A DNA stretch of 14,266 nucleotides. Origin: a virus (Duplodnaviria > Heunggongvirae > Uroviricota > Caudoviricetes). Shown here one piece after another: positions 1-12,904 of the stretch (position 1 is its first letter; each line of letters opens with the position of its first letter). The DNA lies in IMG/VR virus record IMGVR_UViG_2703718840_000012; one strand, written 5' to 3'. The translations under genes were made by a program, and so were the position numbers. The notes below the pieces were generated by a model that made no database searches, was not told the origin of the DNA, and saw only the letters and a program-made list of their open reading frames with translations.

Positions 1-93
1 GCGGAGTTATCCCGCGTAGAGATAGTCGAGCTGCTCAGTCAGGAGTCGGAAAAATTTCACAATATCGGATTGTCTCGCGGGGAGGTGCTTTGA
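1..93 (+). CDS. 3' end of an upstream phage early ORF (partial; 30 codons open from window edge to TGA at 91-93)
   Basis: Frame 1 is open from position 1 to a TGA at 91-93 that overlaps the next gene's ATG (93-95) by one base, as is typical of the packed P2 early operon. Not in the ORF track because it has no start codon in the window. Confidence 0.35.
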
Positions 94-392
94 TGTCCTG
101 TTCTCATTCAGTTGTATTACTGAATAACGCCTTAAAAATCGCCGTTATGAAAAATGGCGATTTGTCTCTTATTCAACTTTGTCTTGATAAAGAAAAACGC
201 GACATCACTGAATCTGTTATCGCGATTTATCAGAATGAATTAAACCTCCTGTCTGATGTGGTCAATTTACTTGTTAAACGCGCTGTATTCCACAAGCAAA
301 TTTCCTCAGTGGATGAACTGACAAAATTAACGACAGAACTTGCCAGTTATTGCGCTGATGTATCCAGGAAACTTAACGATAAAAGGAGCTGA
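93..392 (+). CDS. hypothetical phage early-operon protein
   Basis: ORF-track 90..392; the ATG at 93 is preceded by GGAGG (81-85) at 7-nt spacing, and the TTG at 90 is likely an artefact. Stop at 390-392 sits 2 nt before the next RBS/ATG. Position matches the small-ORF block between B and A in P2. Confidence 0.6.
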   Translation: MSCSHSVVLLNNALKIAVMKNGDLSLIQLCLDKEKRDITESVIAIYQNELNLLSDVVNLLVKRAVFHKQISSVDELTKLTTELASYCADVSRKLNDKRS

Positions 393-394
393 TA

Positions 395-619
395 ATGCCG
401 GATAACGTAGATTTTATTCAGGAACAACAGGCTGAATTACTGGAGCGCCAGATTAACGCGGCAAGGGTAAAACATTGCGGTGCTTCTGCGCTGGTTTGCG
501 AAGAGTGTGACGCGCCAATACCTGCTGCCCGTCGTGCGGCTTATCCGTCAGCCACGCGTTGTGTTTCCTGTCAGTCAGTCTTTGAAGCAAAAAACAAACA
601 TTACCGGAGAACGGCATGA
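395..619 (+). CDS. TraR/DksA-family C4-type zinc-finger protein
   Basis: Translation contains two CxxC pairs (CEEC ... CVSC) with the spacing of TraR/DksA C4 zinc fingers. AGGAG at 384-388 is 6 nt upstream of the ATG; the stop overlaps the next ATG (ATGA at 616-619). Confidence 0.8.
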   Translation: MPDNVDFIQEQQAELLERQINAARVKHCGASALVCEECDAPIPAARRAAYPSATRCVSCQSVFEAKNKHYRRTA

Positions 620-891
620 GTATTCGTATTGAAATTGGCGAACGTTATGTCGTTACCAGTGACAGCTTTCAGTTTATTCTCCACGAGAAAAAGAGAGCGG
701 AAAGCGGTAAAAACGCCGGTCAGGAATGGCTGTCGGTGGTTGGTTATTACCCGAAATTAAGCCAGCTCGTTTCCGGCCTGATGCATCACGATATTCTGAC
801 CGGAAGCGCAAAGTCTTTTGCTGATTTAAACGTGCAGGTTGAGCAACTCAGCAAGCGTTGTTCAGAGGCTTTTGGCTCATATGGCCGTTAA
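616..891 (+). CDS. hypothetical phage early-operon protein
   Basis: ATG at 616 with GGAGA at 604-608; the 3' end overlaps the gpA start at 881. Compact, overlapping organisation typical of a phage operon. Confidence 0.6.
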   Translation: MSIRIEIGERYVVTSDSFQFILHEKKRAESGKNAGQEWLSVVGYYPKLSQLVSGLMHHDILTGSAKSFADLNVQVEQLSKRCSEAFGSYGR

Positions 892-3157
892 AGCCTCCGG
901 GCGTTTTGTCCCTCCGTCAGCATTTGCCGCAGGCACCGGTAAGGCGTTTACCGGTGCTTATGCATGGAACGCGCCACGCGAGGCTGTCGGGCGCGAAAGA
1001 CCCCTTACACGTGACGAGATGCGTCAGGTGCAAGGTGTTTTATCCACGATTAACCGCCTGCCTTACTTTTTGCGCTCGCTGTTTACGTCACGCTATGACT
1101 ACATCCGGCGCAATAAAAGCCCGGTGCACGGGTTTTATTTTCTCACATCCACTTTTCAGCGTCGTTTATGGCCGCGCATTGAGCGTGTGAATCAGCGCCA
1201 TGAAATGAACACCGACGCGTCGTTGCTGTTTCTGGCAGAGCGTGACCATTATGCGCGTCTGCCGGGGATGAATGACAAGGAGCTGAAAAAGTTTGCCGCC
1301 CGTATCTCATCGCAGCTTTTCATGATGTATGAGGAACTCTGCGATGCCTGGGTGGATGCGCATGGCGAAAAAGAATCGCTGTTTACGGATGAGGCGCAGG
1401 CTCACCTCTATGGTCATGTTGCTGGTGCTGCACGTGCTTTCAATATTTCCCCGCTCTACTGGAAAAAATACCGTAAAGGGCAGATGACCAAGAGGCAGGC
1501 ATATTCTGCCATTGCCCGTCTGTTTAACGATGAGTGGTGGACCCATCAGCTTAAAGGCCAGCGTATGCGCTGGCATGAGGCGTTACTGATTGCTGTCGGG
1601 GAGGTCAATAAAGACCGTTCTCCTTATGCCAGTAAACATGCCATTCGTGATGTGCGTGCACGCCGCCAGGCAAATCTGGAATTTCTTAAATCGTGTGATC
1701 TCGAAAACAGGGAAACCGGCGAGCGCATCGACCTTATCAGTAAGGTGATGGGCAGTATTTCTAATCCTGAAATTCGCCGGATGGAGCTGATGAACACCAT
1801 TGCCGGTATTGAGCGTTACGCCGCAGCAGAGGGTGATGTGGGGATGTTTATCACGCTGACCGCGCCGTCAAAGTATCACCCGACACGTCAGGTCAGAAAA
1901 GGCGAAAGTAAAACCGTCCAGCTAAATCACGGCTGGAACGATGAGGCATTTAATCCAAAGGATGCGCAGCGTTATCTCTGCCGTATCTGGAGCCTGATGC
2001 GCACGGCATTCAAGGATAATGATTTACAGGTCTACGGTTTGCGTGTCGTCGAGCCACACCACGACGGAACGCCGCACTGGCATATGATGCTTTTTTGTAA
2101 TCCGCGCCAGCGTAACCAGATTATCGAAATCATGCGTCGCTATGCGCTCAAAGAGGATGGCGATGAAAGAGGAGCCGCGCGAAACCGTTTTCAGGCAAAA
2201 CACCTTAACCGGGGCGGTGCTGCGGGGTATATCGCGAAATACATCTCAAAAAACATCGACGGCTATGCACTGGATGGTCAGCTCGATAACGATACCGGCA
2301 GGCCGCTGAAAGACACTGCTGCGGCTGTTACCGCATGGGCGTCAACGTGGCGCATCCCGCAATTTAAAACGGTTGGTCTGCCAACAATGGGGGCTTACCG
2401 TGAACTACGCAAATTGCCGCGCGGCGTCAGCATTGCTGATGAGTTTGACGAGCGCGTCGAGGCTGCACGCGCCGCCGCAGACAGTGGTGATTTTGCGTTG
2501 TATATCAGCGCGCAGGGTGGGGCAAATGTCCCGCGCGATTGTCAGACTGTCAGAGTCGCCCGTAGCCCGTCGGATGACGTTAACGAGTACGAGGAAGAGG
2601 TCGAGAGGGTGGTCGGCATTTACGCGCCGCATCTCGGCGCGCGTCATATTCATATCACCAGAACGACGGACTGGCGCATTGTGCCGAAAGTTCCGGTCGT
2701 TGAGCCTTTGACTTTAAAAAGCGGCATCGCCGCGCCTCGGAGTCCTGTCAATAACTGTGGAAAGCTCACCGGTGGTGATACTTCGTTACCGGCTCCCACA
2801 CCTTCTGAGCACGCCGCAGCAGTGCTTAATCTGGTAGATGACGGTGTTATCGAATGGAATGACCAGGAGGTCGTGAGGGCGCTCAGAGGTGCATTAAAAC
2901 ACGGTCTGAGAAGACCAAACCGTCAGCAAAGAAACGGAAGCCCGTTAAAACCGCATGAAATAGCGCCATCGGCCAGACTGACCCGGTCGGAACGAATGCA
3001 AATTACCCGTATCCGCGTTGACCTTGCTCAGAACGGTATCAGGCCACAGCGATGGGAGCTTGAGGCGCTGGCGCGTGGCGCGACCGTAAATTATGACGGG
3101 GAAAAATTCACGTATCCGGTCGCTGATGAGTGGCCGGGATTCTCAACAAACATATAA
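881..3157 (+). CDS. A: P2-type replication initiation endonuclease gpA (rolling-circle initiator)
   Basis: ORF-track 839..3157 starts at a TTG; the ATG at 881 gives MAVKASGRFVPPSAFAAGTGK..., which I recognise as the P2 gpA N-terminus. Length (~758 aa) fits gpA and it contains the HWHMMLF block. Recognition is from memory, not a search. Confidence 0.9.
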   Translation: MAVKASGRFVPPSAFAAGTGKAFTGAYAWNAPREAVGRERPLTRDEMRQVQGVLSTINRLPYFLRSLFTSRYDYIRRNKSPVHGFYFLTSTFQRRLWPRIERVNQRHEMNTDASLLFLAERDHYARLPGMNDKELKKFAARISSQLFMMYEELCDAWVDAHGEKESLFTDEAQAHLYGHVAGAARAFNISPLYWKKYRKGQMTKRQAYSAIARLFNDEWWTHQLKGQRMRWHEALLIAVGEVNKDRSPYASKHAIRDVRARRQANLEFLKSCDLENRETGERIDLISKVMGSISNPEIRRMELMNTIAGIERYAAAEGDVGMFITLTAPSKYHPTRQVRKGESKTVQLNHGWNDEAFNPKDAQRYLCRIWSLMRTAFKDNDLQVYGLRVVEPHHDGTPHWHMMLFCNPRQRNQIIEIMRRYALKEDGDERGAARNRFQAKHLNRGGAAGYIAKYISKNIDGYALDGQLDNDTGRPLKDTAAAVTAWASTWRIPQFKTVGLPTMGAYRELRKLPRGVSIADEFDERVEAARAAADSGDFALYISAQGGANVPRDCQTVRVARSPSDDVNEYEEEVERVVGIYAPHLGARHIHITRTTDWRIVPKVPVVEPLTLKSGIAAPRSPVNNCGKLTGGDTSLPAPTPSEHAAAVLNLVDDGVIEWNDQEVVRALRGALKHGLRRPNRQQRNGSPLKPHEIAPSARLTRSERMQITRIRVDLAQNGIRPQRWELEALARGATVNYDGEKFTYPVADEWPGFSTNI

Positions 3158-3218
3158 AAATGATTGAAATGGTTGATTTTGCTTCCACTTGATGGTTGGT
3201 ATCAGCAACTGATGGATC

Positions 3219-3479
3219 ATGCGGAACTGCGTGGCGATCTTGCTTTGGAAGCATGTCATTATGACTAATGCATACATTACTAGCTATGCGTCCGGTTCCG
3301 CCATTGTACTCGTGCAAGAGTCTGCGGCTGATGGCTATTGTTTACAAATTATGGTCAAAGAGAATCTGACCCTCTACGAGTTGGTCGGAGGGACTGAGAT
3401 CGTCAGTGATAACTGCAGCCGTATGGGAGAAATCAATAATCCCAACCGTCCATATTTCTACCTTCACGCGTGCCCATAA
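3219..3479 (+). CDS. hypothetical small protein downstream of A (orf91-like position); start may be ATG 3261
   Basis: ORF-track ORF; no strong RBS at either candidate start. Composition is intermediate between the backbone and the AT-rich cargo. Confidence 0.3.
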   Translation: MRNCVAILLWKHVIMTNAYITSYASGSAIVLVQESAADGYCLQIMVKENLTLYELVGGTEIVSDNCSRMGEINNPNRPYFYLHACP

Positions 3480-3644
3480 TCTGTCACCACGTTGACCATA
3501 GAAAACCCCGTCGACGCTGAAACTCGCTTTCAGTGCTGGCGGGGGTGAACAACGAGCTTGCGAGGCGTTAGGGATGTCGAAATTTCATATGACTGTTCGC
3601 TTTAATGCTTAACGAAGTCATGTTGAGTTAATAACATTTTTTCG

Positions 3645-5189
3645 TTAAGCGCTGTGTTCCTTGTCGAATAAGTTCACTTCTTCTGGTGTAATATCATTAT
3701 CCATTTCTTCGAATGCATCTAAATCCACAATTTTTGTTTTTTTCAAAATTGATAGTATTTTCTGTTTGTTTTTACTTTTGGCTGAACCCGGAATCCACTC
3801 TACATCCCACAGGCCATCAATGGTAAATGTTTTTTTTCCCTTGAGTTCATCATTTATGCGTTGACATAGGGCTGTTTTGTAATCGCCTTCCCATTGTGTG
3901 TGTATCTTCCCTTGAACTCGTTGAAACCAAATATCTAACATTTCAGTATTTGGTTGTTTACCTAGTTTACAATGAAGTTGTTGTAACTTGCCAAATTTGA
4001 GTTCATCGTCGTCATAAAGGAAGGTCAAGAGTTTTGCGAAAATAGCCATTCCCACTGGGTAGGTGGTTGGGTTTTTAGCCATGATGCTTGAAATAATTCC
4101 AAGCATTGCATCTAGTTGATGCCCACTATTTGTGATCTTTTTCTTCCTAAATAATTTTCGCAAGAAATCATTTAAATATCTAACTGTAATTTTGGAGTTT
4201 TGATGTTTTAAAGAAAATAAATATATTGCATACAACATTTTCTGTAGGGAGTTGAACGACTTTTCTATAATATATTCTTTTTTTGCTGATTTAAGGGAGT
4301 GAAGAATGATGTCGTCATGTAGTTCTGTTTTTCTTGAGTTTAAATCAAGCCCAAACTCACCTAAGACCTCAACCAAACACTTTGAGATTTTGTCCAAATC
4401 ATCTTTACTGCTTGAAAATATTCGATAATCATCTCTGTAGCGAACTACTTTGTAATCCGTTATTTTTTGCTCTTCAGTTTTTTTTCTTAGCTGTAAATCA
4501 ATTTCGCCTAAAATTAATTCGGCAAATGTATCCATCAACGTACTACCCAATGGTATTCCGTTTGTCTGATTACTCATCATCATCTGGATATGAGTGTCAA
4601 TCAATCGTCCTGGGTTATTGTTATTTTCTTTCTTTTTGGCCTCTTCTTTTGAGATGAATACCCATTCAAAGCTATGAGTGTAAATAGAAGGGTAGAAGTT
4701 TGAAATATCTGTGCTGAACATGAACTCATACTCAAGAGCCAATGAAAGACTTTTTTGTTCAAAATCTTCCCACCAGTTTAAAACAGATGCAGCTACGTTT
4801 GAGGTGTTCTTTTTGCTCACTGGGGTACTTGAGCATAAAAAAAGATCATTAGACTCAAACTCTCTAAATTTATTCTTTATAGCCTTCCAGTTGGAAGGGG
4901 ATGTAATAAGTTTACAAAAATACACGTAGTATAGAGGATTAATTAGTGTTATTCGTCGCCAGCTATATAAGCCATCTTTGCTGACTAAAACCTCGTAATT
5001 TATATTCTTCCCCATCAATGACTTGGAGTCAGGTTGGAAGTTGATTTTACCTTCATCTATCGCGGAGTTGATTTCTTCAAGCAAGGAAGAAAAATCGACA
5101 TAACTGGGTAGCTCCAGAGTAGTGTATGAATCATGCTGCAGAAAATACTTAAGCGCTCTACCAGTAGTTAATTCATAAATCTTTTTCAT
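3645..5189 (-). CDS. reverse transcriptase, Abi/UG-like single-gene type with ~220-aa C-terminal extension
   Basis: Translation shows RT motifs in order: SWRRITLINP (motif 2), FSTDISNFYPSI (motif A, catalytic D), NGIPLGSTLMDTFAELIL (motif B), VVRYRDDYRIF (YxDD motif C), GLDLNSRKT (motif D/E). ATG at 5189 (MKKIYELT...) is preferred; the ORF-track start at 5315 is a TTG and the extension reads as Cys/His-rich junk running into the cos flank. Same position and orientation as old in P2. Confidence 0.8.
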   Translation of the reverse strand: MKKIYELTTGRALKYFLQHDSYTTLELPSYVDFSSLLEEINSAIDEGKINFQPDSKSLMGKNINYEVLVSKDGLYSWRRITLINPLYYVYFCKLITSPSNWKAIKNKFREFESNDLFLCSSTPVSKKNTSNVAASVLNWWEDFEQKSLSLALEYEFMFSTDISNFYPSIYTHSFEWVFISKEEAKKKENNNNPGRLIDTHIQMMMSNQTNGIPLGSTLMDTFAELILGEIDLQLRKKTEEQKITDYKVVRYRDDYRIFSSSKDDLDKISKCLVEVLGEFGLDLNSRKTELHDDIILHSLKSAKKEYIIEKSFNSLQKMLYAIYLFSLKHQNSKITVRYLNDFLRKLFRKKKITNSGHQLDAMLGIISSIMAKNPTTYPVGMAIFAKLLTFLYDDDELKFGKLQQLHCKLGKQPNTEMLDIWFQRVQGKIHTQWEGDYKTALCQRINDELKGKKTFTIDGLWDVEWIPGSAKSKNKQKILSILKKTKIVDLDAFEEMDNDITPEEVNLFDKEHSA

Positions 5190-5395
5190 AATTAGTGATT
5201 TCTTCTTAAGTTGCGCACAAATAACTACCTGTTTTCTATCATGATAACGATGCGAATGCGAGCAATTCAGGAAGTGCATTACTCTGCATCGAAGCGCACG
5301 CAAGTCAGAGAACAATAACTGCCTGGCGACATCAGGACTGGCGCGCTAGTTGAGTGGTCATGCAACTGCATTAAAACCGCCCCATGAAGCGGGCG

Positions 5396-5414
5396 GGCGA
5401 GGCGGGGAAAGCAC
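5396..5414. other. P2-type cos site (19-nt cohesive-end sequence GGCGAGGCGGGGAAAGCAC)
   Basis: Exact 19-nt string ggcgaggcggggaaagcac inside a GC-rich island between the two AT-rich RT genes. It matches the P2/186 cohesive-end sequence as I recall it, and sits where cos is expected, between the old-slot gene and Q. Confidence 0.65.
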
Positions 5415-5452
5415 TGCGCGCTAAACGATGTCGCTGGCTTGCAGTTACCCGG

Positions 5453-5481
5453 TTGAAATTCTTATTTTTTTGTTGCATTAT
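5453..5481 (+). promoter_or_regulatory. candidate sigma70 promoter for the RT2 leader/operon (TTGAAA-17 nt-CATTAT)
   Basis: -35 ttgaaa at 5453-5458, 17-nt spacer, -10 cattat at 5476-5481, immediately right of cos and about 250 nt upstream of the RT2 start. Sequence-only call. Confidence 0.25.
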
Positions 5482-5527
5482 TCTTAGCGCACCAGCGATT
5501 CGCTTGGTATGCGGCAGTCAACAACAT

Positions 5528-5722
5528 TAAATTGTCAGTTTTTGCTTTTACAAAAAAGCGTCCACTATGGACCTATCAGCGAGGCCCCACCGTCGTCAAC
5601 TACGATGGTGCCGTAGCCGACGACATTACGTACGGTCGAAAGATAGCAGAGGCTGTTGCTGACAATTGTTGATGTAAGCATCTCTGCTGTTCCACCCTTG
5701 AGTATGGGAAGACCGTACGTAA
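5528..5722 (+). ncRNA. candidate structured leader / retron-like ncRNA (msr-msd-like) upstream of RT2
   Basis: Nested and crossing inverted repeats: 9-bp aattgtcag (5530-5538) vs ctgacaatt (5659-5667), extendable to ~14 bp with a bulge; a two-tier hairpin at 5591-5622; a perfect 12-bp repeat ttacgtacggtc (5626-5637) vs gaccgtacgtaa (5711-5722) ending 18 nt before the RT2 ATG. Architecture is ncRNA -> RT -> effector as in retrons. Boundaries are approximate. Confidence 0.3.
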
Positions 5723-5739
5723 CTTTGAATTTGAATGGT

Positions 5740-6930
5740 ATGTTTATGGATAAATTTAAACCATACAGCAAATCCAATGCTCCTATCACAACACTTGAAA
5801 AGTTGTCAAAGGCTTTATCGATTTCTGTTGAAGAGCTTAAAGCTATTGCAGAATTACCATTAGATGAGAAATATACTCTAAAAGAAATTCCCAAAATTGA
5901 CGGAAGCAAACGGATTGTCTACTCCCTGCATCCTAAAATGAGATTATTACAGAGTAGAATTAATAAACGTATCTTTAAGGAATTGGTTGTTTTTCCTTCA
6001 TTTTTGTTTGGTTCAGTTCCCAGTAAAAATGATGTTTTAAATTCTAATGTCAAACGTGACTATGTTTCATGTGCAAAGGCTCATTGTGGAGCAAAAACAG
6101 TTCTCAAGGTGGATATAAGTAATTTTTTCGATAATATCCATAGAGATCTGGTTAGGAGCGTGTTTGAGGAGATATTGCATATTAAGGATGAGGCTCTTGA
6201 ATACTTGGTGGAAATATGTACTAAGGATGATTTTGTCGTACAGGGGGCCTTAACATCAAGCTATATAGCAACTTTGTGTTTATTCGCTGTTGAAGGGGAT
6301 GTGGTAAGACGTGCGCAGAGGAAAGGACTTGTTTATACGCGTTTGGTAGATGATATTACCGTGTCATCTAAAATAAGTAATTATGATTTTTCTCAAATGC
6401 AAAGCCATATAGAGAGGATGCTTTCTGAGCATGACTTGCCGATAAATAAGCGCAAAACTAAAATATTTCACTGTTCATCTGAACCTATAAAAGTACATGG
6501 TTTAAGAGTTGACTATGACTCACCTCGACTACCATCCGATGAAGTCAAAAGAATCAGGGCATCTATACATAATTTGAAATTACTGGCGGCAAAAAATAAC
6601 ACAAAAACAAGTGTTGCATACAGAAAAGAATTCAATAGATGTATGGGGAGAGTGAATAAGCTTGGCCGTGTTGCGCATGAAAAATATGAATCATTCAAGA
6701 AACAGTTGCAGGCAATAAAACCGATGCCATCTAAAAGAGATGTTGCTGTGATTGATGCAGCTATAAAAAGTTTAGAGTTGTCGTATTCGAAAGGTAATCA
6801 AAATAAACATTGGTATAAAAGAAAATATGATTTGACGAGATATAAGATGATTATTCTTACTCGCTCTGAATCATTTAAAGAAAAACTGGAGTGTTTTAAA
6901 TCTAGATTGGCATCTTTAAAACCATTATGA
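5740..6930 (+). CDS. retron-type reverse transcriptase (divergent catalytic motifs)
   Basis: Translation shows YTLKEIPKIDGSKRIVYSLHP (motifs 1-2), HCGAKTVLKVDISNFFDNI (motif A), VVQGALTSSYIATL (motif B), YTRLVDDI (motif C, both Asp present), INKRKTKI, then VHGLRVDY...VKRIRASIHNL, resembling the retron RT VTG/thumb region. Start is ambiguous among ATG 5704, 5740 and 5746, none with a strong SD; the ORF-track start 5656 is a TTG. Confidence 0.85.
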   Translation: MFMDKFKPYSKSNAPITTLEKLSKALSISVEELKAIAELPLDEKYTLKEIPKIDGSKRIVYSLHPKMRLLQSRINKRIFKELVVFPSFLFGSVPSKNDVLNSNVKRDYVSCAKAHCGAKTVLKVDISNFFDNIHRDLVRSVFEEILHIKDEALEYLVEICTKDDFVVQGALTSSYIATLCLFAVEGDVVRRAQRKGLVYTRLVDDITVSSKISNYDFSQMQSHIERMLSEHDLPINKRKTKIFHCSSEPIKVHGLRVDYDSPRLPSDEVKRIRASIHNLKLLAAKNNTKTSVAYRKEFNRCMGRVNKLGRVAHEKYESFKKQLQAIKPMPSKRDVAVIDAAIKSLELSYSKGNQNKHWYKRKYDLTRYKMIILTRSESFKEKLECFKSRLASLKPL

Positions 6931-7634
6931 ATGCAAATATTAGACTTCTCAAATATATTGTCGGTGTGTCGTCAGCTCTTTTTTTGATTTTTTCGCTAAT
7001 TTCTCTTTTTGAAACTATTCAGAATGAAAAGCTATATGAGCGTGATATATGCTTCGATAGCCAGTGCTTAAAATTTTTTGCGGAAAAAACATCTGGTATA
7101 GTAATGTATTTTCAGGCGTTTGGATGGCTTATAACAACTTTTGTTACCGTTTTTGGTGTTATGATTGCTTTGATGACATATAACGCTGGAGTTAAAAATA
7201 ATAATAATAGTAATTACACTAGTCATCTGACGATGTTTAGAGAATTTGCAAGTGCTGAGTTAACTAAAAGAAGTAGCATCTATCCAGAGAAAGTTAATTT
7301 TTTTAGATGGTATAGGGTTATGTTCCCTGAAGCGCAAGGCGGTGATATATCTGTTTCGAGAGATTATCTAGAAATAATATCTAGAATCAAATGTGTTATT
7401 GAGGAAGCCAATGCACATATTACAGAGGAAAATAAAGACTATAAATATAAAACTCATCAGAGAAAAATGATGGCTGTTTTGGATGAAATCGGTATATCGA
7501 TTAGTAATGGGCCCAAAAATATTTTTATTGAGGTTGAGAGTCAAATTTTGGATTATATCGATACTATTAATTTGTCATTTTGTCACTCCTCATCAGTGAT
7601 AGAATTAAGTAGAGTAAAAAGGAAGTATATATAG
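6927..7634 (+). CDS. two-transmembrane-helix membrane protein with ~150-aa soluble C-terminal domain; candidate effector of the RT2 module
   Basis: ATG overlaps the RT2 stop (ATGA at 6927-6930), indicating translational coupling. Two hydrophobic stretches (YIVGVSSALFLIFSLISLF and IVMYFQAFGWLITTFVTVFGVMIALMTY) near the N-terminus; same AT-rich composition as RT2. Confidence 0.8.
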   Translation: MNANIRLLKYIVGVSSALFLIFSLISLFETIQNEKLYERDICFDSQCLKFFAEKTSGIVMYFQAFGWLITTFVTVFGVMIALMTYNAGVKNNNNSNYTSHLTMFREFASAELTKRSSIYPEKVNFFRWYRVMFPEAQGGDISVSRDYLEIISRIKCVIEEANAHITEENKDYKYKTHQRKMMAVLDEIGISISNGPKNIFIEVESQILDYIDTINLSFCHSSSVIELSRVKRKYI

Positions 7635-7636
7635 TT

Positions 7637-7672
7637 AAGTTGGCGGGATTGCATTCCGCCAACTTTATATAT
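7637..7672. terminator. GC-rich hairpin with T-rich tail between the cargo operon and the 3' end of Q; candidate bidirectional terminator
   Basis: aagttggcgg (7637-7646) pairs with ccgccaactt (7656-7665) around a 9-nt loop, followed by tttatatattt. Lies 3 nt after the 2TM stop and 5 nt before the Q stop on the other strand. Confidence 0.45.
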
Positions 7673-7676
7673 TTAC

Positions 7677-8696
7677 TTATAAGTTATAATCAAGGAATTT
7701 TATGACTTCCATATCTAACCATTCATTTATTGACTTTATTCTCTCCTGTAATGGAATGAGTTCATTGCGGACAAAGACCTTTGCCACTTTTTCAATATCT
7801 CCTAGTGACCCGACATTCTCCGGCTTACCGCCCATCAACTGAAAGGGGATGCGGTGTGCGTCCAGGAGATCTGCGGCGCTGACTTTTTTGATATTAAAAA
7901 AATCGTCCTTCGTCGCCACTTCACTGAGGGGGATAATTTTAATGCCGTCGGCTTTCCCCTGTGGGGCATAGAGAAACAGGTTTTTAAAGTTGTTGCGGCC
8001 TTTTGACTTAACCATGTTTTCGCGAAGCATTTCGATATCGTTGCGGTCCTGCACGGCATCGGTGACGTACATGATGTATCCGGCATGAGCGCCGTTTTCG
8101 TAATACTTGCGGCGGAACAGCGTGGCCGACTCATTCAGCCAGGCAGAGTTAAGGGCGCTGAGATATTCCGGCAGGCCGTACAGCTCCTGATTAATATCAG
8201 GCTCCAGCAGGTGAAACACGGAGCCGGGCGCGAAGGCTGTCGGCTCGTTGAAGGACGGCACCCACCAGTAAACATCCTCCTCCACGCCACGACGGGTATA
8301 TTTGGCCGGTGAGGTTTCCAGTCTGATGACCTTACCGGTGGTGCTGTAACGCTTTTCCAGAAACGCATTACCGAACACCAGAAAATCCAGCACAAAGCGG
8401 CTGAAATCCTGCTGGGACAGCCACGGGTGCGGGATAAACGTTGAAGCCAGAATATTGCGTTTAACGTAAATCGGTGAGCTGTGATGCACGGCAGCACGCA
8501 GGCTTTTTGCCAGACCGGTAAAGCTGACCGGTGGCTCATACCATCTGCCGTTACTGATGCACTCGACGTAATCCAGAATATCACGGCGGTCGAGTACCGG
8601 CACCGGCTCACCAAAGGTGAATGCCTCCATTTTCGGGGCGCTGGCAGTCATTGTTTTCACCGCTGGCTGCGGTGTTTTCCCTTTTTTCTTACTCAT
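7677..8696 (-). CDS. Q: P2-type capsid portal protein gpQ
   Basis: 339-aa ORF (P2 gpQ is similar in size), GGAG RBS 9 nt upstream, ATG overlapping the stop of the upstream terminase ORF (ATGA at 8693-8696), cos-proximal and on the leftward strand as in P2. Confidence 0.88.
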   Translation of the reverse strand: MSKKKGKTPQPAVKTMTASAPKMEAFTFGEPVPVLDRRDILDYVECISNGRWYEPPVSFTGLAKSLRAAVHHSSPIYVKRNILASTFIPHPWLSQQDFSRFVLDFLVFGNAFLEKRYSTTGKVIRLETSPAKYTRRGVEEDVYWWVPSFNEPTAFAPGSVFHLLEPDINQELYGLPEYLSALNSAWLNESATLFRRKYYENGAHAGYIMYVTDAVQDRNDIEMLRENMVKSKGRNNFKNLFLYAPQGKADGIKIIPLSEVATKDDFFNIKKVSAADLLDAHRIPFQLMGGKPENVGSLGDIEKVAKVFVRNELIPLQERIKSINEWLDMEVIKFLDYNL

Positions 8697-9607
8697 CAGT
8701 AAAACTCCAGAATGGTGGATGTCAGCGGGGTGCTGATACCGGCGGTGAGTGGCTCATTTAACAGGGCGTGCATGGTCGCCCAGGCGAGATCGGCGTGGCT
8801 GGCTTCCTCGCTGCGGCTGGCCTCATAGGTGGCGCTGCGTCCGCTGCTGGTCATGGTCTTGCGGATAGCCATAAACGAGCTGGTGATGTCGGTGGCGCTG
8901 ACGTCATATTCCAGACAGCCACGGCGGATAACGTCTTTTGCCTTGAGCACCATTGCGGTTTTCATTTCCGGCGTGTAGCGGATATCGCGCGCGGCGGGAT
9001 AGAACGAGCGCACGAGCTGGAACACGCCGACACCGAGGCCGGTGGCATCAATCCCGATGTATTCAACGTTATATTTTTCGGTGAGTTTGCGGATGGATTC
9101 CGCCTGGGTGGCAAAGTCCATGCCTTTCCACTGGTGACGCTCAAGTATTCTGAATTTGCCACCGGCCACCACCGGCGGTGCCAGTACCACGCATCCGGCG
9201 CTGTCGCCACGGTGTGACGGGTCGTAACCAATCCATACCGGGCGGGAGCCGAACGGATTTGCGGCAAACGGCGCATAGTCTTCCCATTCTTCCAGCGTGT
9301 CGACCATGCAACGTTGCAGCTCCTCGAACGGGAACACCGACGCCTTGTCGTCAACAAATTCACACATGAACAGGTTTTTAAAATCGTCGGCGCTGTTTTC
9401 ACGTTTGAGCTGCTCAATGTCGAACAGTGTGCAGCCACCTTTCAGGGCGTCCTCAATGGTGACAATCTGCCGCCACTGGCCGTCCGCACAGAGAAGCCCA
9501 CCGGCAAGGGCGTTATGACTGACGTCGATTTCCACGCGTTCGGCGGCGCTGGCGCGTCCCCGGTTGAACAGTTCACCCGACCAGAACGGGTACCCTGGAT
9601 AATCCGG
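8696..9607 (-). pseudogene. P: terminase ATPase/nuclease subunit gpP, C-terminal ~300 aa only (5' half deleted)
   Basis: Reading frame is continuous with the Q overlap and is open upstream of the GTG at 9535 back to a TAA at 9608-9610, with no plausible start or N-terminal ATPase region. About 300 aa are present against the ~590 expected for gpP. Confidence 0.8.
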
Positions 9608-9846
9608 TTAAACGTGGTGAACAGGTTATCGAACAGGTCACGCTGATGAAACCCAATGCCGGGACGCTGCGCGGTGTCAGTCTGGCTGCGGTCGCAAACT
9701 CCGAAGTCGATGCACTGATTAAAGTGCTGCCGCGCATGACGGCACCGATGCTGACCGAGCAGGAGGTCGCCGCGCTGGAACTGCCTGACCTTGTGGCGCT
9801 GGCCGGTAAGGTGGTCGGTTTTTTGTCGCCGAACTCGGTGCAGTGA
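9568..9846 (+). pseudogene. E: tail assembly chaperone gpE, 5'-truncated at the deletion junction (first ATG at 9646)
   Basis: Frame open from 9568. Ends ...GKVVGFLSPNSVQ with the heptamer T TTT TTG (9819-9825) in the correct phase for the -1 shift that makes E+E' in P2-like phages. Abuts the P fragment on the opposite strand. Confidence 0.6.
9819..9825 (+). other. programmed -1 ribosomal frameshift slippery heptamer (T_TTT_TTG) of the E/E' pair
   Basis: X_XXY_YYZ pattern in phase with the E frame (codons GGT TTT TTG); the -1 frame stays open for ~55 codons to a TGA at 9990-9992. Confidence 0.55.
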
Positions 9847-9898
9847 CGTTTCCGAAAAATCTCTCGGTCGATGACCTGATGGCGGATGTGGCAGTGAT

Positions 9899-10675
9899 AT
9901 TTCACTGGCCGCCATCACCGGCATCAATGCCATCATCGCGGCAGCAGGCGCAATGGGGGCAATCTTCACGACGGTTGGCAGTGCTGTTATGACCGCCATC
10001 GGAGCGATTAGCTGGCCGGTTGTGGCCGTGGTGGCCGCCATTGTCGCCGGGGCGTTGCTTATCCGTAAATACTGGGAGCCTGTCAGCGCATTCTTTGGCG
10101 GTGTGGTGGAAGGGCTGAAAGCGGCATTTGCGCCGGTGGGGGAACTGTTCACGCCACTTAAGCCGGTGTTTGACTGGCTGGGCGAAAAGTTACAGGCCGC
10201 GTGGCAGTGGTTTAAAAACCTGATTGCCCCGGTTAAAGCCACCCAGGACACCCTGAACCGTTGCCGTGACACGGGCGTCATGTTCGGGCAGGCACTGGCT
10301 GACGCGTTGATGCTGCCGCTTAATGCGTTCAACAAACTGCGCAGTGGTATTGACTGGGTACTGGAAAAACTCGGTGTTATCAACAAAGAGTCAGACACAC
10401 TTGACCAGACCGCCGCCAGAACTCATGCCGCCACGTATGGCACCGGTGGTTATATTCCGGCGACCAGCTCTTATGCAGGCTATCAGGCTTATCAGCCGGT
10501 TACGGCACCGGCTGGCCGCTCTTATGTGGACCAGAGTAAAAACGAATATCACATCAGTCTGACGGGCGGTACTGCGCCGGGGACTCAGCTCGACCGCCAG
10601 TTACAGGATGCGCTCGAAAAATATGAGCGGGATAAACGTGCGCGCGCCCGTGCCAGCATGATGCATGACGGTTAA
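9899..10675 (+). pseudogene. T: tail tape measure protein gpT, C-terminal ~240-260 aa only
   Basis: Frame open from 9899, first ATG at 9953, stop at 10673-10675 directly before the U RBS. Hydrophobic segment plus a C-terminal ...ERDKRARARASMMHDG tail typical of P2-like tape measures; far shorter than the ~800 aa expected. Confidence 0.75.
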
Positions 10676-10689
10676 GGAGGTGACGAAAA

Positions 10690-11169
10690 ATGATGCTCGC
10701 GTTAGGTATGTTTGTTTTTATGCGCCAGACGCTGCCACACCAGACCATGCAGCGTGAATCAGATTATCGCTGGCCGTCAAATTCCCGTATCGGTAAACGG
10801 GATGCCTTTCAGTTTCTCGGTGTGGGTGAGGAAAACATTACGCTTGCCGGCGTGCTTTATCCCGAACTGACCGGCGGCAAGCTGACGATGACCACGCTCA
10901 GACTGATGGCAGAGGAAGGCCGGGCGTGGCCGTTGCTGGATGGCACCGGCATGATTTACGGCATGTATGTCATCAGCAGGGTGAATGAAACAGGGAGTAT
11001 TTTCTTTGCAGACGGCACACCCCGGAAAATTGATTTTACGCTGTCGCTCACCCGCGTTGATGAATCACTGGCCGCGCTTTATGGCGATATCGGTAAACAG
11101 GCGGAATCGCTCATCGGTAAGGCTGGCAGTATGGCGACTAAATTCACGGGTATGACGGGGGCGGGATAA
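10690..11169 (+). CDS. U: P2-type tail protein gpU
   Basis: 159-aa ORF beginning MMLALGMFVFMRQTLPHQ..., AAGGAGG RBS at 10673-10679; stop overlaps the D start by one base (TAATG). Confidence 0.9.
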   Translation: MMLALGMFVFMRQTLPHQTMQRESDYRWPSNSRIGKRDAFQFLGVGEENITLAGVLYPELTGGKLTMTTLRLMAEEGRAWPLLDGTGMIYGMYVISRVNETGSIFFADGTPRKIDFTLSLTRVDESLAALYGDIGKQAESLIGKAGSMATKFTGMTGAG

Positions 11170-12332
11170 TGCTGGATGCGCTGACATTTGATGCAGGCAG
11201 TACGCTGACGCCGGATTACATGCTGATGCTCGACAGCAGGGATATTACCGGCAATATCAGCGACCGTCTGATGAGCATGACCCTGACGGATAACCGGGGC
11301 TTTGAGGCTGACCAGCTTGATATTGAACTGAACGATGCCGACGGGCAGGTCGGGCTGCCGGTTCGTGGCGCTGTCCTGACGGTGTATATCGGCTGGAAAG
11401 GTTTTGCCCTGGTATGCAAAGGGAAATTCACCGTTGATGAGGTTGAACACCGGGGCGCGCCGGATGTGGTTACCATCCGCGCCCGGAGTGCAGATTTTCG
11501 CGGGACGCTCAATTCCCGCCGTGAAGGCTCATGGCATGACACCACGCTCGGTGCGATTGTTGAGGCGATAGCCTCCCGTAACAAGCTGGAAGCCAGTGTC
11601 GCGCCGTCACTGGACGGAATTAAAATCCCGCACATCGACCAGTCGCAGGAGTCTGATGCGAAATTCCTGACCCGCCTTGCTGAACGCAACGGCGGTGAGG
11701 TGTCGGTAAAAATGGGAAAACTGTTGTTTCTCAAAGCGGGGCAGGGGGTGACTGCCAGCGGTAAAAAAATCCCGCAGATTACCATCACCCGCAGCGACGG
11801 TGACCGTCATCATTTTGCGATTGCTGACCGTGGAGCTTACACCGGCGTAACGGCAAAGTGGTTACACACCAAAGACCCGAAGCCGCAAAAGCAGAAGGTA
11901 AAACTGAAACGCAAAAAGAAAGAAAAACACCTGCGCGCACTGGAGCACCCGAAAGCGAAACCGGTCACGCAGAAGAAAGCGCCAAAAGTACCGGAAGCGC
12001 GCGAAGGTGAATACATGGCCGGTGAAGCTGACAACGTTTTTGCCCTGACCACGGTATATGCCACAAAAGCGCAGGCTATGCGCGCCGCTCAGGCGAAGTG
12101 GGACAAACTGCAACGGGGCGTTGCGGAGTTCTCCATCAGCCTGGCTACCGGTCGGGCAGATATTTACACGGAAACACCGGTCAAAGTGTCAGGCTTTAAG
12201 CGCGTCATAGACGAGCAGGACTGGACAATCACTAAGGTGACACATTTTCTGAATAATAGCGGCTTCACGACGTCCTTGGAGCTTGAGGTCAGGCTTTCTG
12301 ATGTGGAGTACGAAACAGAAGATGATGAGTGA
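11169..12332 (+). CDS. D: P2-type tail protein gpD
   Basis: 387-aa ORF in the U-D-ogr order with a lysine-rich KPQKQKVKLKRKKKEK segment; recognised as the gpD family (yegZ in E. coli K-12 is a fragment of this gene). Confidence 0.9.
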   Translation: MLDALTFDAGSTLTPDYMLMLDSRDITGNISDRLMSMTLTDNRGFEADQLDIELNDADGQVGLPVRGAVLTVYIGWKGFALVCKGKFTVDEVEHRGAPDVVTIRARSADFRGTLNSRREGSWHDTTLGAIVEAIASRNKLEASVAPSLDGIKIPHIDQSQESDAKFLTRLAERNGGEVSVKMGKLLFLKAGQGVTASGKKIPQITITRSDGDRHHFAIADRGAYTGVTAKWLHTKDPKPQKQKVKLKRKKKEKHLRALEHPKAKPVTQKKAPKVPEAREGEYMAGEADNVFALTTVYATKAQAMRAAQAKWDKLQRGVAEFSISLATGRADIYTETPVKVSGFKRVIDEQDWTITKVTHFLNNSGFTTSLELEVRLSDVEYETEDDE

Positions 12333-12413: not shown

Positions 12414-12632
12414 ATGTTTCATTGTCCTTTATGCCAGCATGCCGCACATGCGCGTACAAGCCGCTATATCACTGACACGACAAAAGAGCGTTATCACCAG
12501 TGTCAGAACGTGAATTGCAGCGCCACGTTTATCACTTATGAGTCGGTACAGCGATACATCGTGAAGCCGGGAGAAGTCCACGCCGTAAGACCGCACCCGT
12601 TGCCGTCAGGGCAGCAAATTATGTGGATGTAA
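12414..12632 (+). CDS. ogr: Ogr late-gene transcription activator (C4 zinc finger)
   Basis: 72-aa product MFHCPLCQHAAHARTSRYITDTTKERYHQCQNVNCSATF... with CxxC-N22-CxxxxC cysteines, recognised as P2 Ogr (ogrK in K-12). ORF-track start 12351 is a TTG; the ATG at 12414 has a GGAAGAGGTG RBS. Confidence 0.9.
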   Translation: MFHCPLCQHAAHARTSRYITDTTKERYHQCQNVNCSATFITYESVQRYIVKPGEVHAVRPHPLPSGQQIMWM

Positions 12633-12733: not shown

Positions 12734-12760
12734 AAAAAATAAGCCCGTGTAAGGGAGATT
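12734..12760. other. P2 attachment-site core (attR), 27 bp AAAAAATAAGCCCGTGTAAGGGAGATT
   Basis: Exact 27-nt string at 12734-12760, about 100 nt after ogr and 145 nt before host yegQ, matching the P2 att core as I recall it. The phage-host junction is therefore here. Confidence 0.65.
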
Positions 12761-12904
12761 ACACAGGCTAAGGAGGTGGTTCCTGGTACAGCTAGCATTT
12801 TATGGGTTATGTTTTTCAGCGAAACGGATGATAACCTTAATAAATGCAGCTGTATGTGATCGGTTTCTAAGAATTTTCCATCCGGGAAAAATAATCGAAA
12901 TTAA

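Follow-up and report, generated by a model that had tools for sequence, protein, structure and literature searches.

An internal deletion scar in a P2-like prophage, and the reuse of its break sites in other prophage remnants

The window, the whole 14,266-nt stretch of viral DNA analysed here, is an ordinary defective P2 prophage resembling the cryptic remnant PR-X of Escherichia coli K-12, and in it the terminase gene P is cut and fused to the tail gene E. The joint is very probably the fossil of a ~15-kb internal deletion in a P2-like prophage residing at cyaR/yegQ, produced by RecA-independent illegitimate joining at breakpoints that are preferred sites. Both breakpoints of the window are reused in many remnants, which argues for breakage at preferred sites and not at random. 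Independent remnants draw repeatedly on a small set of P2 break sites, which they combine in various pairings and in either polarity. It is possible, and is put forward only tentatively, that P2-like prophages are inactivated not by random decay but by a sequence-directed breakage-rejoining activity of host or phage (a nuclease, a recombinase or a topoisomerase-like enzyme) that cuts at GGNTA^ and ^TANCC and joins such ends in pairs.

The window is recognisable as a degraded P2-like prophage: on either side of the joint, gene order and nucleotide sequence agree with P2. Identity to P2 (NC_001895) amounts to 96.8-97.6% over Q-P', E and T'-U-D-ogr-att, and the window is 99.4% identical to an intact prophage with the same cargo. 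Integration at the P2 attachment site is indicated by the 27-nt core at the prophage end, which adjoins cyaR/yegQ (attL lies outside the window); beyond the core, the window continues with CyaR and then yegQ. The core is located within the CyaR terminator, and its arms form an inverted repeat, AGCCCGTGTAA / TTACACAGGCT, which is the terminator stem. The element has kept the early region, cos, Q, U, D, ogr and two reverse-transcriptase defence cargoes, arranged with the remnants as follows.

839-3157: replication gene A
3645-5315, minus strand: AbiP2-type reverse transcriptase gene, at the tin/old position
5396-5414: cos
5656-7634: type IV (Ec48-type) retron reverse transcriptase and 2TM effector, between cos and Q
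7677-8696, minus strand: Q, portal gene, intact, 339 codons (open reading frame with a Phage_portal domain, as long as the annotated Q of an intact relative)
8696-9592, minus strand: P', the 3' 897 nt of the terminase large-subunit gene P (colinear with intact P to 9592)
9591-9592: junction 1, TA overlap (three-way alignments; P2 coordinates)
9593-9846, plus strand: remnant of E, tail assembly chaperone gene (Phage_TAC_7 domain; alignment)
9843-9917, plus strand: remnant of E', the first 25 codons of the -1 frame extension
9914-9917: junction 2, ATCA overlap, inside an imperfect repeat matching at 11 of 13 positions
9918-10675, plus strand: T', the C-terminal ~252 codons of the tape-measure gene
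10690-11169, plus strand: U, tail gene, intact, 159 aa (Phage_P2_GpU domain)
11169-12332, plus strand: D, baseplate hub gene, intact, 387 aa (Phage_GPD domain)
12414-12632, plus strand: ogr, late-gene activator, intact, 72 aa (Ogr_Delta domain)
12734-12760, plus strand: attR core, the 27-nt P2 att core (exact match; direct repeat D4 flanking the intact prophage)

A search for the retron RNA family gave no Rfam match within the window. The defence cargo, consisting of the two reverse-transcriptase systems, is not part of the junction.

BLAST comparison with the intact same-cargo prophage and with P2 divides the window into three colinear blocks (1-9592, 9591-9917 and 9905 onward). The first matches intact P2-like prophages colinearly as far as codon 292 of gene P. 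From 9591 onward, the window corresponds to gene E, starting 20 nt inside the gene with its 21st nucleotide. With a slash marking the joint, the left parent in gene P reads GAACGGGTA/GGCGTC and the right parent, 20 nt into E, reads GTCATTA/CCCTGGAT, while the window reads GAACGGGTACCCTGGAT across the joint. The parents share the TA at 9591-9592, a 2-nt overlap, and their flanks are unrelated. The joint connects position 2117 to 19450 of P2 (NC_001895), or 12728 to 27648 in the coordinates of the intact reference, and 14,919 bp (~14.9 kb) are absent relative to the closest intact relative. Neither the window sequence nor the parent alignments contain an IS element, an att core or a long repeat at junction 1. 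Non-homologous parents, a 2-nt overlap and a joint free of IS and att sequences are the features of a microhomology-mediated illegitimate deletion.

An earlier note on this DNA had described a deletion junction fusing the 3' half of P to E, with all genes from O to FII missing, and the alignments agree with it. The frames were read correctly: the minus-strand P frame is open from the Q overlap (8696) to a TAA, seen as TTA on the plus strand at 9608-9610, and the plus-strand E frame opens at 9568, after a TGA at 9565-9567, and ends at 9846. The breakpoint, which the note had confined to 9568-9607, falls at 9590-9592 in the alignment to an intact relative and P2. The same comparison with P2, which the note had proposed together with a look for microhomology, revealed the 2-nt TA. 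By sequence comparison, then, the deletion junction is confirmed as an observation, and its interpretation as a P-to-E deletion joint is supported.

The exact junction has no match in 5,426 complete E. coli genomes, nor in GTDB sampled at one genome per species. Its absence from the genomes searched suggests a rare allele, though one flanked by ordinary high-identity P2 sequence. The joint lies within an 8-bp palindrome, GGGTACCC, and creates a KpnI site, GGTACC, as an assembly artefact or an engineered joint might. The chance of such an origin is practically negligible: the KpnI site is present in neither parent and arises from the TA plus its flanks, there is no vector sequence, and the left breakpoint is shared by many independent complete genomes whose joints have no KpnI site.

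What is left of the two genes is incomplete. P' comprises the C-terminal 298 of the 590 codons of P, the N-terminal 292 being gone. According to Pfam, the Terminase_6C nuclease domain is complete and Terminase_6N (ATPase) is represented only by profile positions 143-215 of 215; this tail, the last third of the domain, bears out the earlier statement that the N-terminal ATPase region is missing. P' does not combine the ATPase and nuclease domains that a functional gpP has. The first start codon in its frame is the GTG at 9535, which would give a product of 279 aa. Gene E, deprived of its first 20 nt, has lost its ATG and six more codons; its first in-frame start is the ATG at 9646, leaving 66 of 91 codons, and the E/E' slippery run (~9820-9826), the frameshift site according to the P2 record, is kept. 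A look-up of the 66-aa E remnant returned mostly intact phages in which the gene caller had picked the internal ATG, so this remnant is not diagnostic.

A second deletion, of 1,762 nt (P2 19777-21538), lies 325 nt downstream of junction 1. It removed the 3' end of E' and the 5' two thirds of T, and the E' frame is out of register with the T frame at junction 2. The first deletion, which corresponds to the gap P2 2118-19449, took the 5' part of P, the genes from O to FII, the lysis genes and every one of the four late promoters that the P2 record annotates. The relevant positions in that record, every one of them inside the gap, are these.

P2 3016: start of the P operon
P2 3057-3087: activator site shared by pO and pP
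P2 3127: start of O
P2 10239-10308: pV
P2 17555-17628: pF

The loss of the late promoters, claimed in the earlier note, is borne out by these coordinates, the P2-annotated P/O, pV and pF promoters all lying in the gap. It leaves Q/P' and the stretch from E' to D without a late promoter of their own. In a consensus scan, the surroundings of the joint showed no sigma-70-like promoter. With the annotated promoters lost, Q, P', U and D would be silent; in the case of Q, U and D, which the earlier note had called probably transcriptionally orphaned, the promoter loss stands by coordinates, and silence itself is inferred from it. The ogr promoter is outside both deletions, and the P2 record places the -35 and -10 elements of ogr downstream of D. 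With the head, lysis, baseplate, fibre, sheath and tube genes and the four Ogr-dependent late promoters gone, neither lysis nor particle formation is to be expected.

The recurrence of the breakpoints was investigated starting from a 301-nt query across the joint. It found no genome with the junction; some genomes, however, have P broken at that very position and fused to T or D. Two breakpoint-blind searches, one for Q near U-D-ogr and one for P-O near FI-E, supplied remnants that were mapped against one intact reference. Twelve left breakpoints fall in gene P, and eight of them occupy three nucleotide positions: 12068 (twice), 12113 (three times) and 12728/9 (three times, window included). 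Seven coincident pairs among the 12 contrast with 0.11 expected, and none of 200,000 simulations reached seven. The left breakpoint nucleotide of remnants L003 and L004 is that of the window. The right breakpoints recur as well (26229/30, 26418-22 and 26671-74, each with different left partners; P = 0.002).

A further view of the left hot spot comes from the 279-aa P' reading frame, which is found exactly in 341 blocks of public assemblies. Among the ten contigs listed with it, eight are cut at GAACGGGTA(G) and have seven different partners, although such a look-up selects in advance for truncations no farther than ~60 nt from the site and so inflates the apparent share of the hot spot, its single-nucleotide precision being unaffected. 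The other two of the ten are intact prophages, one with a frameshift 9 nt from the site and one with an assembly run of Ns. The partners are D 31389, D 31940 (two contigs, at fieF and pflB), T 29880, the E leader at 27601, FI 26600, V 20017 and a tail-fibre-assembly gene. Together with the window (E 27648) and L003 (T 29347), the left site GAACGGGTA^G has nine distinct partners; at least nine remnants with different joints are cut at exactly this left nucleotide. L041 makes use of the window's right site, ^TACCCTGG, in combination with a left partner in FI. Further loci brought a third use each of site 27601 and of hot spot 12068, and the sites 26229, 26674 and 29880 serve as the left end in one remnant and as the right end in another.

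A single ancient P' junction, inherited and later extended rightwards by further deletions, would dispense with any hot spot. Some lineages are indeed related, as L004 and L013 are identical over Q-P', and the occurrence of identical junctions at different att sites implies that homologous recombination can move junctions. However, every later deletion would have had to restart within 1 nt of the old joint, which would itself be a hot spot, and at least five right sites behave in the same way, as do a further three left sites. Over 1,181 nt, the Q-P' flanks of breakpoint-sharing remnants show 24-54 substitutions from one another (2-5%), as many as those of non-sharers. The sharers reside at three att sites (yegQ, fieF and pflB) and carry different, unrelated cargo. 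Given this flank divergence and the differing partners, att sites and cargo, common descent does not explain the joints; a single ancestral junction is largely refuted and must be regarded as very improbable.

Some junctions that are identical at different att sites, such as the one joining 12729 to 31940 in L028 and L031, may each represent one event spread by homologous recombination and not two events.

The truncation point could also have been selected, if a free terminase nuclease domain (P') were useful, for example against superinfecting P2-like phages. The break does lie between the ATPase and nuclease domains, and the 279-aa frame is widespread, as its 341 blocks indicate. Selection for a domain boundary nevertheless cannot yield single-nucleotide precision, the junction brings neither a promoter nor a ribosome-binding site (the only start being the internal GTG), and the other hot spots leave just 79-94 codons of P. 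Such selection is accordingly considered highly unlikely. The preferred reading is breakage at preferred sites, and these sites have a sequence signature.

The signature was sought in 34 unique half-sites, aligned with the retained DNA read 5' to 3' away from the joint. The most frequent letters among the 34 are T at +1 (18), A at +2 (16), C at +4 and at +5 (20 each) and G at +6 (16). Read outward, the retained DNA thus begins 5'-TANCC(G), a TA-centred and GC-clamped pattern seen over ~30 junctions, and the complete site has the form SGG-W2-4-CC(G), a short imperfect GC-clamped palindrome with an AT core. Of the 34 half-sites, 15 have WWNCC within 0-3 nt of the break, whereas 20,000 random sets average 2.2 and never exceed 9; nine have TANCC, for which the null gives 0.32. 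Among observed TA sites, seven of ten continue as TANCC, compared with ~10% of random TA sites. An unsupervised EM search returned the motif CGGTWACC, which spans the break (LLR 140 versus 112 +/- 5.5 for the null). The joints themselves are quasi-palindromic, as in the window (GGGTACCC) and in L014 (CGGTTAACCG), and the inverted joints of L002 and L014 show the same signature. The overlaps cluster at 2-4 nt, TA being the commonest, whereas random joining would give mostly 0-1 nt.

Since the motif was defined from the first junctions, only loci found later are out-of-sample; in three such junctions it is present in 4-5 of six half-sites, and two known right sites are reused. It is missing at L007, at L012 and on the right side of L017. 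In the FI-D interval, five of the 12 GG-W3-4-CC sites are used and hold nine of the 19 right breakpoints. GGTNACC, GGTNNACC and GG-W3-4-CC each outnumber the used sites, and usage can therefore not be predicted from the palindrome alone.

This excess of unused sites bears on the possibility that no site-specific enzyme is involved and that the joints arose by replication template switching, that is, slippage or microhomology-mediated break-induced replication, at fragile TA steps in GC-rich DNA. Template switching is a serious rival and a possible explanation, if one rated below even chances. It is consistent with overlaps of 2-4 nt throughout and with the additional imperfect homology to the left site in L025 (7 of 9), L030 (GGTA) and L020 (GGTAGAC). 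L014 and L002, moreover, hold small inverted fragments (163 and 585 nt) with 2-3-nt overlaps, which are typical of serial switches. It would account for such complex rearrangements but not for the many equally good GG-W3-4-CC or TANCCG sites that are unused. The strongest conservation is found on the retained side of both partners, although the annealing of a primer end needs none, and generic fragility would hardly make one and the same nucleotide recur with nine partners.

Several agents known to break or rejoin DNA were compared with the sites. The published cleavage determinants of gyrase and Topo IV are -4G, -2A, -1T / +5A, +6T, +8C (PMC10117906). These published determinants of subunit exchange, which lie around a 4-nt stagger, are absent at the break sites. 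Topo I recognises TCNTTA with C at -4 (PMC9352719), and the break sites carry G at that position instead. The nick site of the P2 A protein at ori, GCGCCTCG^GAGTCC (P2 29892), is unlike GGNTA^. The cix-like sites of the prophage's own tail-fibre invertase, of the Cin/Gin type (TTCTCCMAAACC-AA-GGT...), have half-sites ...AAACC flanking a 2-nt crossover; the junction half-sites, CGG-TA-CCG, are of opposite polarity. On their motifs, gyrase/Topo IV, Topo I, the P2 A nickase and this invertase are all rejected. For Rpn nucleases, no sequence specificity has been reported. The Chi-like octamer nearest to the joint, a possible mark of RecBCD action, is 42 nt away as read from the sequence. Unidirectional deletion by CRISPR-Cas3 seems not to fit either: the first 45 nt of the deleted side are free of type I-E PAMs, and sites serve in both polarities. 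Among the candidates compared, no enzyme with a matching specificity was identified, and to our knowledge no enzyme with such a cleavage specificity is known.

IS elements were considered separately, as a deletion next to an IS, or recombination between two copies of one, could also produce such joints if the IS were later lost. An IS21-family element lies between P' and U in L013, ISApl1 interrupts Q in another relative, and the GC-clamped AT cores resemble the target preferences of transposases, as known from the target consensus sequences of Tn5 and Tn10. Yet no IS, IS end or target duplication is present at the window junction or at ~30 other joints, and the insertions that were observed are away from the hot-spot positions. 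An IS end abutting the joint, as in an IS-mediated adjacent deletion, of which L013 is an example, is not seen in the window. An IS origin is therefore most improbable.

The remaining candidate is a P2-type integrase, or another tyrosine recombinase behaving as a sequence-specific type IB topoisomerase, which would cleave single half-sites like the arms of the att core (CGKGTA^), the 3' ends so produced being joined afterwards; the hot spots would then be pseudo-att arms. P2 is known for eduction, in which Int promotes deletions at secondary att sites, and PR-X looks like such an event. This remnant (ogrK-yegZ, by cyaR/yegQ) occupies the same att site as the window, likewise has an internal deletion and likewise has kept ogr. 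It ends exactly at CCCGTGTA^ of the core (GTGTA^), joined to D 31940, a recurrent right site that L028 and L031 combine with the window's left hot spot. PR-X differs in consisting of only 219 nt of D plus ogr, with the att core as its left end, whereas ~12.7 kb survive in the window, early genes, cargo, cos, Q and P' among them. An integrase would also be in keeping with the natural att core, whose arms form the inverted repeat in the CyaR terminator. The plus strand of the 34-kb prophage holds just seven copies of the pattern CG[GT]GTA[AG], among them two att cores and three left breakpoints (12113, 12728 and 16119), so that CGKGTA^ is common to the core arm and three left hot spots; this pattern was, however, partly derived from the hot spots themselves.

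Against the integrase, the similarity of 52 half-sites to the 9-nt natural arm averages 4.83, compared with 4.61 for random sites (z ~1.7). The window's left partner matches the core arm at 7 of 11 nt, and its right partner resembles an inverted arm and not the right half of the att core. Most junctions join two inverted arm-like halves, and conservative recombination between inverted half-sites would give an inversion instead of a deletion. The overlap is 2 nt in the window and 2-4 nt in the other junctions, not the 6-8 bp of a crossover that deletion at a secondary site needs. Prophages at yegQ, fieF and pflB, among them ones with other integrases and with att regions without the P2 core, use the same hot spots, and site usage is thus not tied to the type of the resident integrase, though a co-resident P2 integrase may act in trans. 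The P2 integrase is weakly supported as the agent, and its involvement appears rather unlikely.

For the reading preferred here, joining at preferred sites, the following course can be proposed. The preferred sites would suffer breaks or give rise to persistent 3' ends reading ...GG(N)TA; two such ends would pair through their short, often self-complementary AT core, and would then be extended or filled in and ligated. In the window, the end ...GAACGGGTA in gene P was joined to the end TACCCTGG..., 20 nt inside E, through the TA overlap and without homology. Such pairing of ends would produce symmetric CGGNTA.NCCG joints with no need for homology.

Hot spots of illegitimate recombination were reportedly described by Ikeda and by Michel and Ehrlich at gyrase sites, rolling-circle nick sites and sites of Ter-arrested forks. 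Like the P2 sites, they have one fixed endpoint, many partners and short or no homology, but the published determinants of gyrase/Topo IV, Topo I and P2 A do not fit the P2 break sites. Prophage decay and domestication by deletion is said to have been treated by Bobay et al. in 2014. As in domesticated prophages generally, structural and lysis genes have been lost from the window while cargo beneficial to the host was kept. Whereas decay is commonly regarded as random deletion on which selection acts as a filter, the breakpoints here recur to the nucleotide and carry a signature. A literature search on recurrent prophage deletion breakpoints with a shared signature found nothing relevant, and judging from it, such nucleotide-level recurrence across independent remnants is apparently new.

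Taken alone, the scar marks a prophage that is dead and yet carries two defence systems and ogr; decay is here a step from a dangerous lysogen to a harmless, defence-carrying island. If P2 prophages break at a few predictable nucleotides, decay would have a mechanistic component that could be isolated genetically, and if a sequence-directed activity is truly at work, domestication would be partly programmed and its outcomes predictable. Should the hot spots hold, annotators could use them to recognise independent domestication events, and they would offer defined substrates (GAACGGGTA^GGCG, GAACGGGTAGGCG and CGGTAACCGG) with which to seek the activity.

The cargo itself follows the habit of P2 phages of carrying anti-phage genes, such as the Abi-P2 reverse transcriptase and retrons, in variable loci. 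The window carries AbiP2 and an Ec48-type retron, whereas the cargo of the other remnants with the same breakpoint is unrelated.

The junction between the terminase gene fragment P' and the tail gene E generates a perfect 8-bp palindrome, GGGTACCC, at positions 9588-9595 of the window. A KpnI site lies within this palindrome and is absent from both parents. The window has also suffered a second deletion, which is independent of the P'/E joint. At 9905-9917, 325 nt downstream of that joint, 1,762 nt (P2 19777-21538) are missing, a loss that truncates E' at its 3' end and deprives the tape-measure gene T of its 5' two thirds. The overlap at this deletion is ATCA, which sits in an imperfect repeat, CTGGCCGNNATCA, with 11 of 13 positions matching. 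A breakpoint in the related locus L002 falls 0-5 nt from the same position, with the opposite side being kept.

L002 (9821-11424) is, like L014 (3874-4619), a complex remnant with inverted inserts between P'/Q' and the tail end, represented by short T, N and M fragments or by a 1.6-kb E'-T segment. Every joint of these inserts in the two loci has a 2-3-nt overlap, and the pattern looks like the result of serial template switching or multiple-break repair.

Two further related prophages, L013 (3768-6071) and L022 (8980-9954), carry IS elements. In L013, P' (1,122 nt) is separated from U by ISEc12, an element of the IS21 family. The Q-P' segment of this lineage is identical to that of L004, which instead has the joint at the P hot spot. 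In L022, Q is interrupted by ISApl1, and this relative is otherwise intact. A smaller lesion is found in L027 (CP027484.1), where a 1-nt insertion 9 nt to the left of the hot spot (CCAGAAACGGGTAGG vs CCAGAACGGGTAGG) divides the P gene of an otherwise intact prophage into two ORFs, with the split nearly coinciding with the deletion hot spot.

P2 prophages in E. coli appear to decay mainly through deletions that extend from Q/P/O into FI...D. The lysis cassette is gone from nearly all remnants among the compared loci (L001-L043); cos, Q and ogr are still present in nearly all of them, as are the early region and the variable cargo. Q lies within ~3 kb of U-D-ogr in 17 of 5,426 complete genomes.

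In L028 and L031, position 31940 in gene D of the intact reference is fused to the P hot spot of the window; in L030 its partner is a V-gene fragment. This D position recurs in the cryptic prophage PR-X of E. coli K-12 MG1655 (L018, 2167183-2167811), where it is fused to the prophage's left end, formed by the att core with the cut after CCCGTGTA. In the window, the 27-nt P2 att core (region 12734-12822) lies within the terminator stem-loop of an sRNA:

12737-12822, minus strand: sRNA CyaR, with the terminator stem-loop enclosing the att core

The left half of the core, AGCCCGTGTAA, forms the inverted repeat of this terminator together with neighbouring bacterial DNA, TTACACAGGCT, which suggests that these are the two core-type arms of the integrase.

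The cos site (5396-5414) is flanked by two reverse-transcriptase defence cargoes:

3645-5315, minus strand: AbiP2-type reverse transcriptase, at the tin/old position
5656-7634, plus strand: type IV (Ec48-type) retron reverse transcriptase with a 2TM effector

No Rfam match to a retron msr/msd RNA was found in the spacer at 5415-5655. The retron cargo is inserted between cos and Q.
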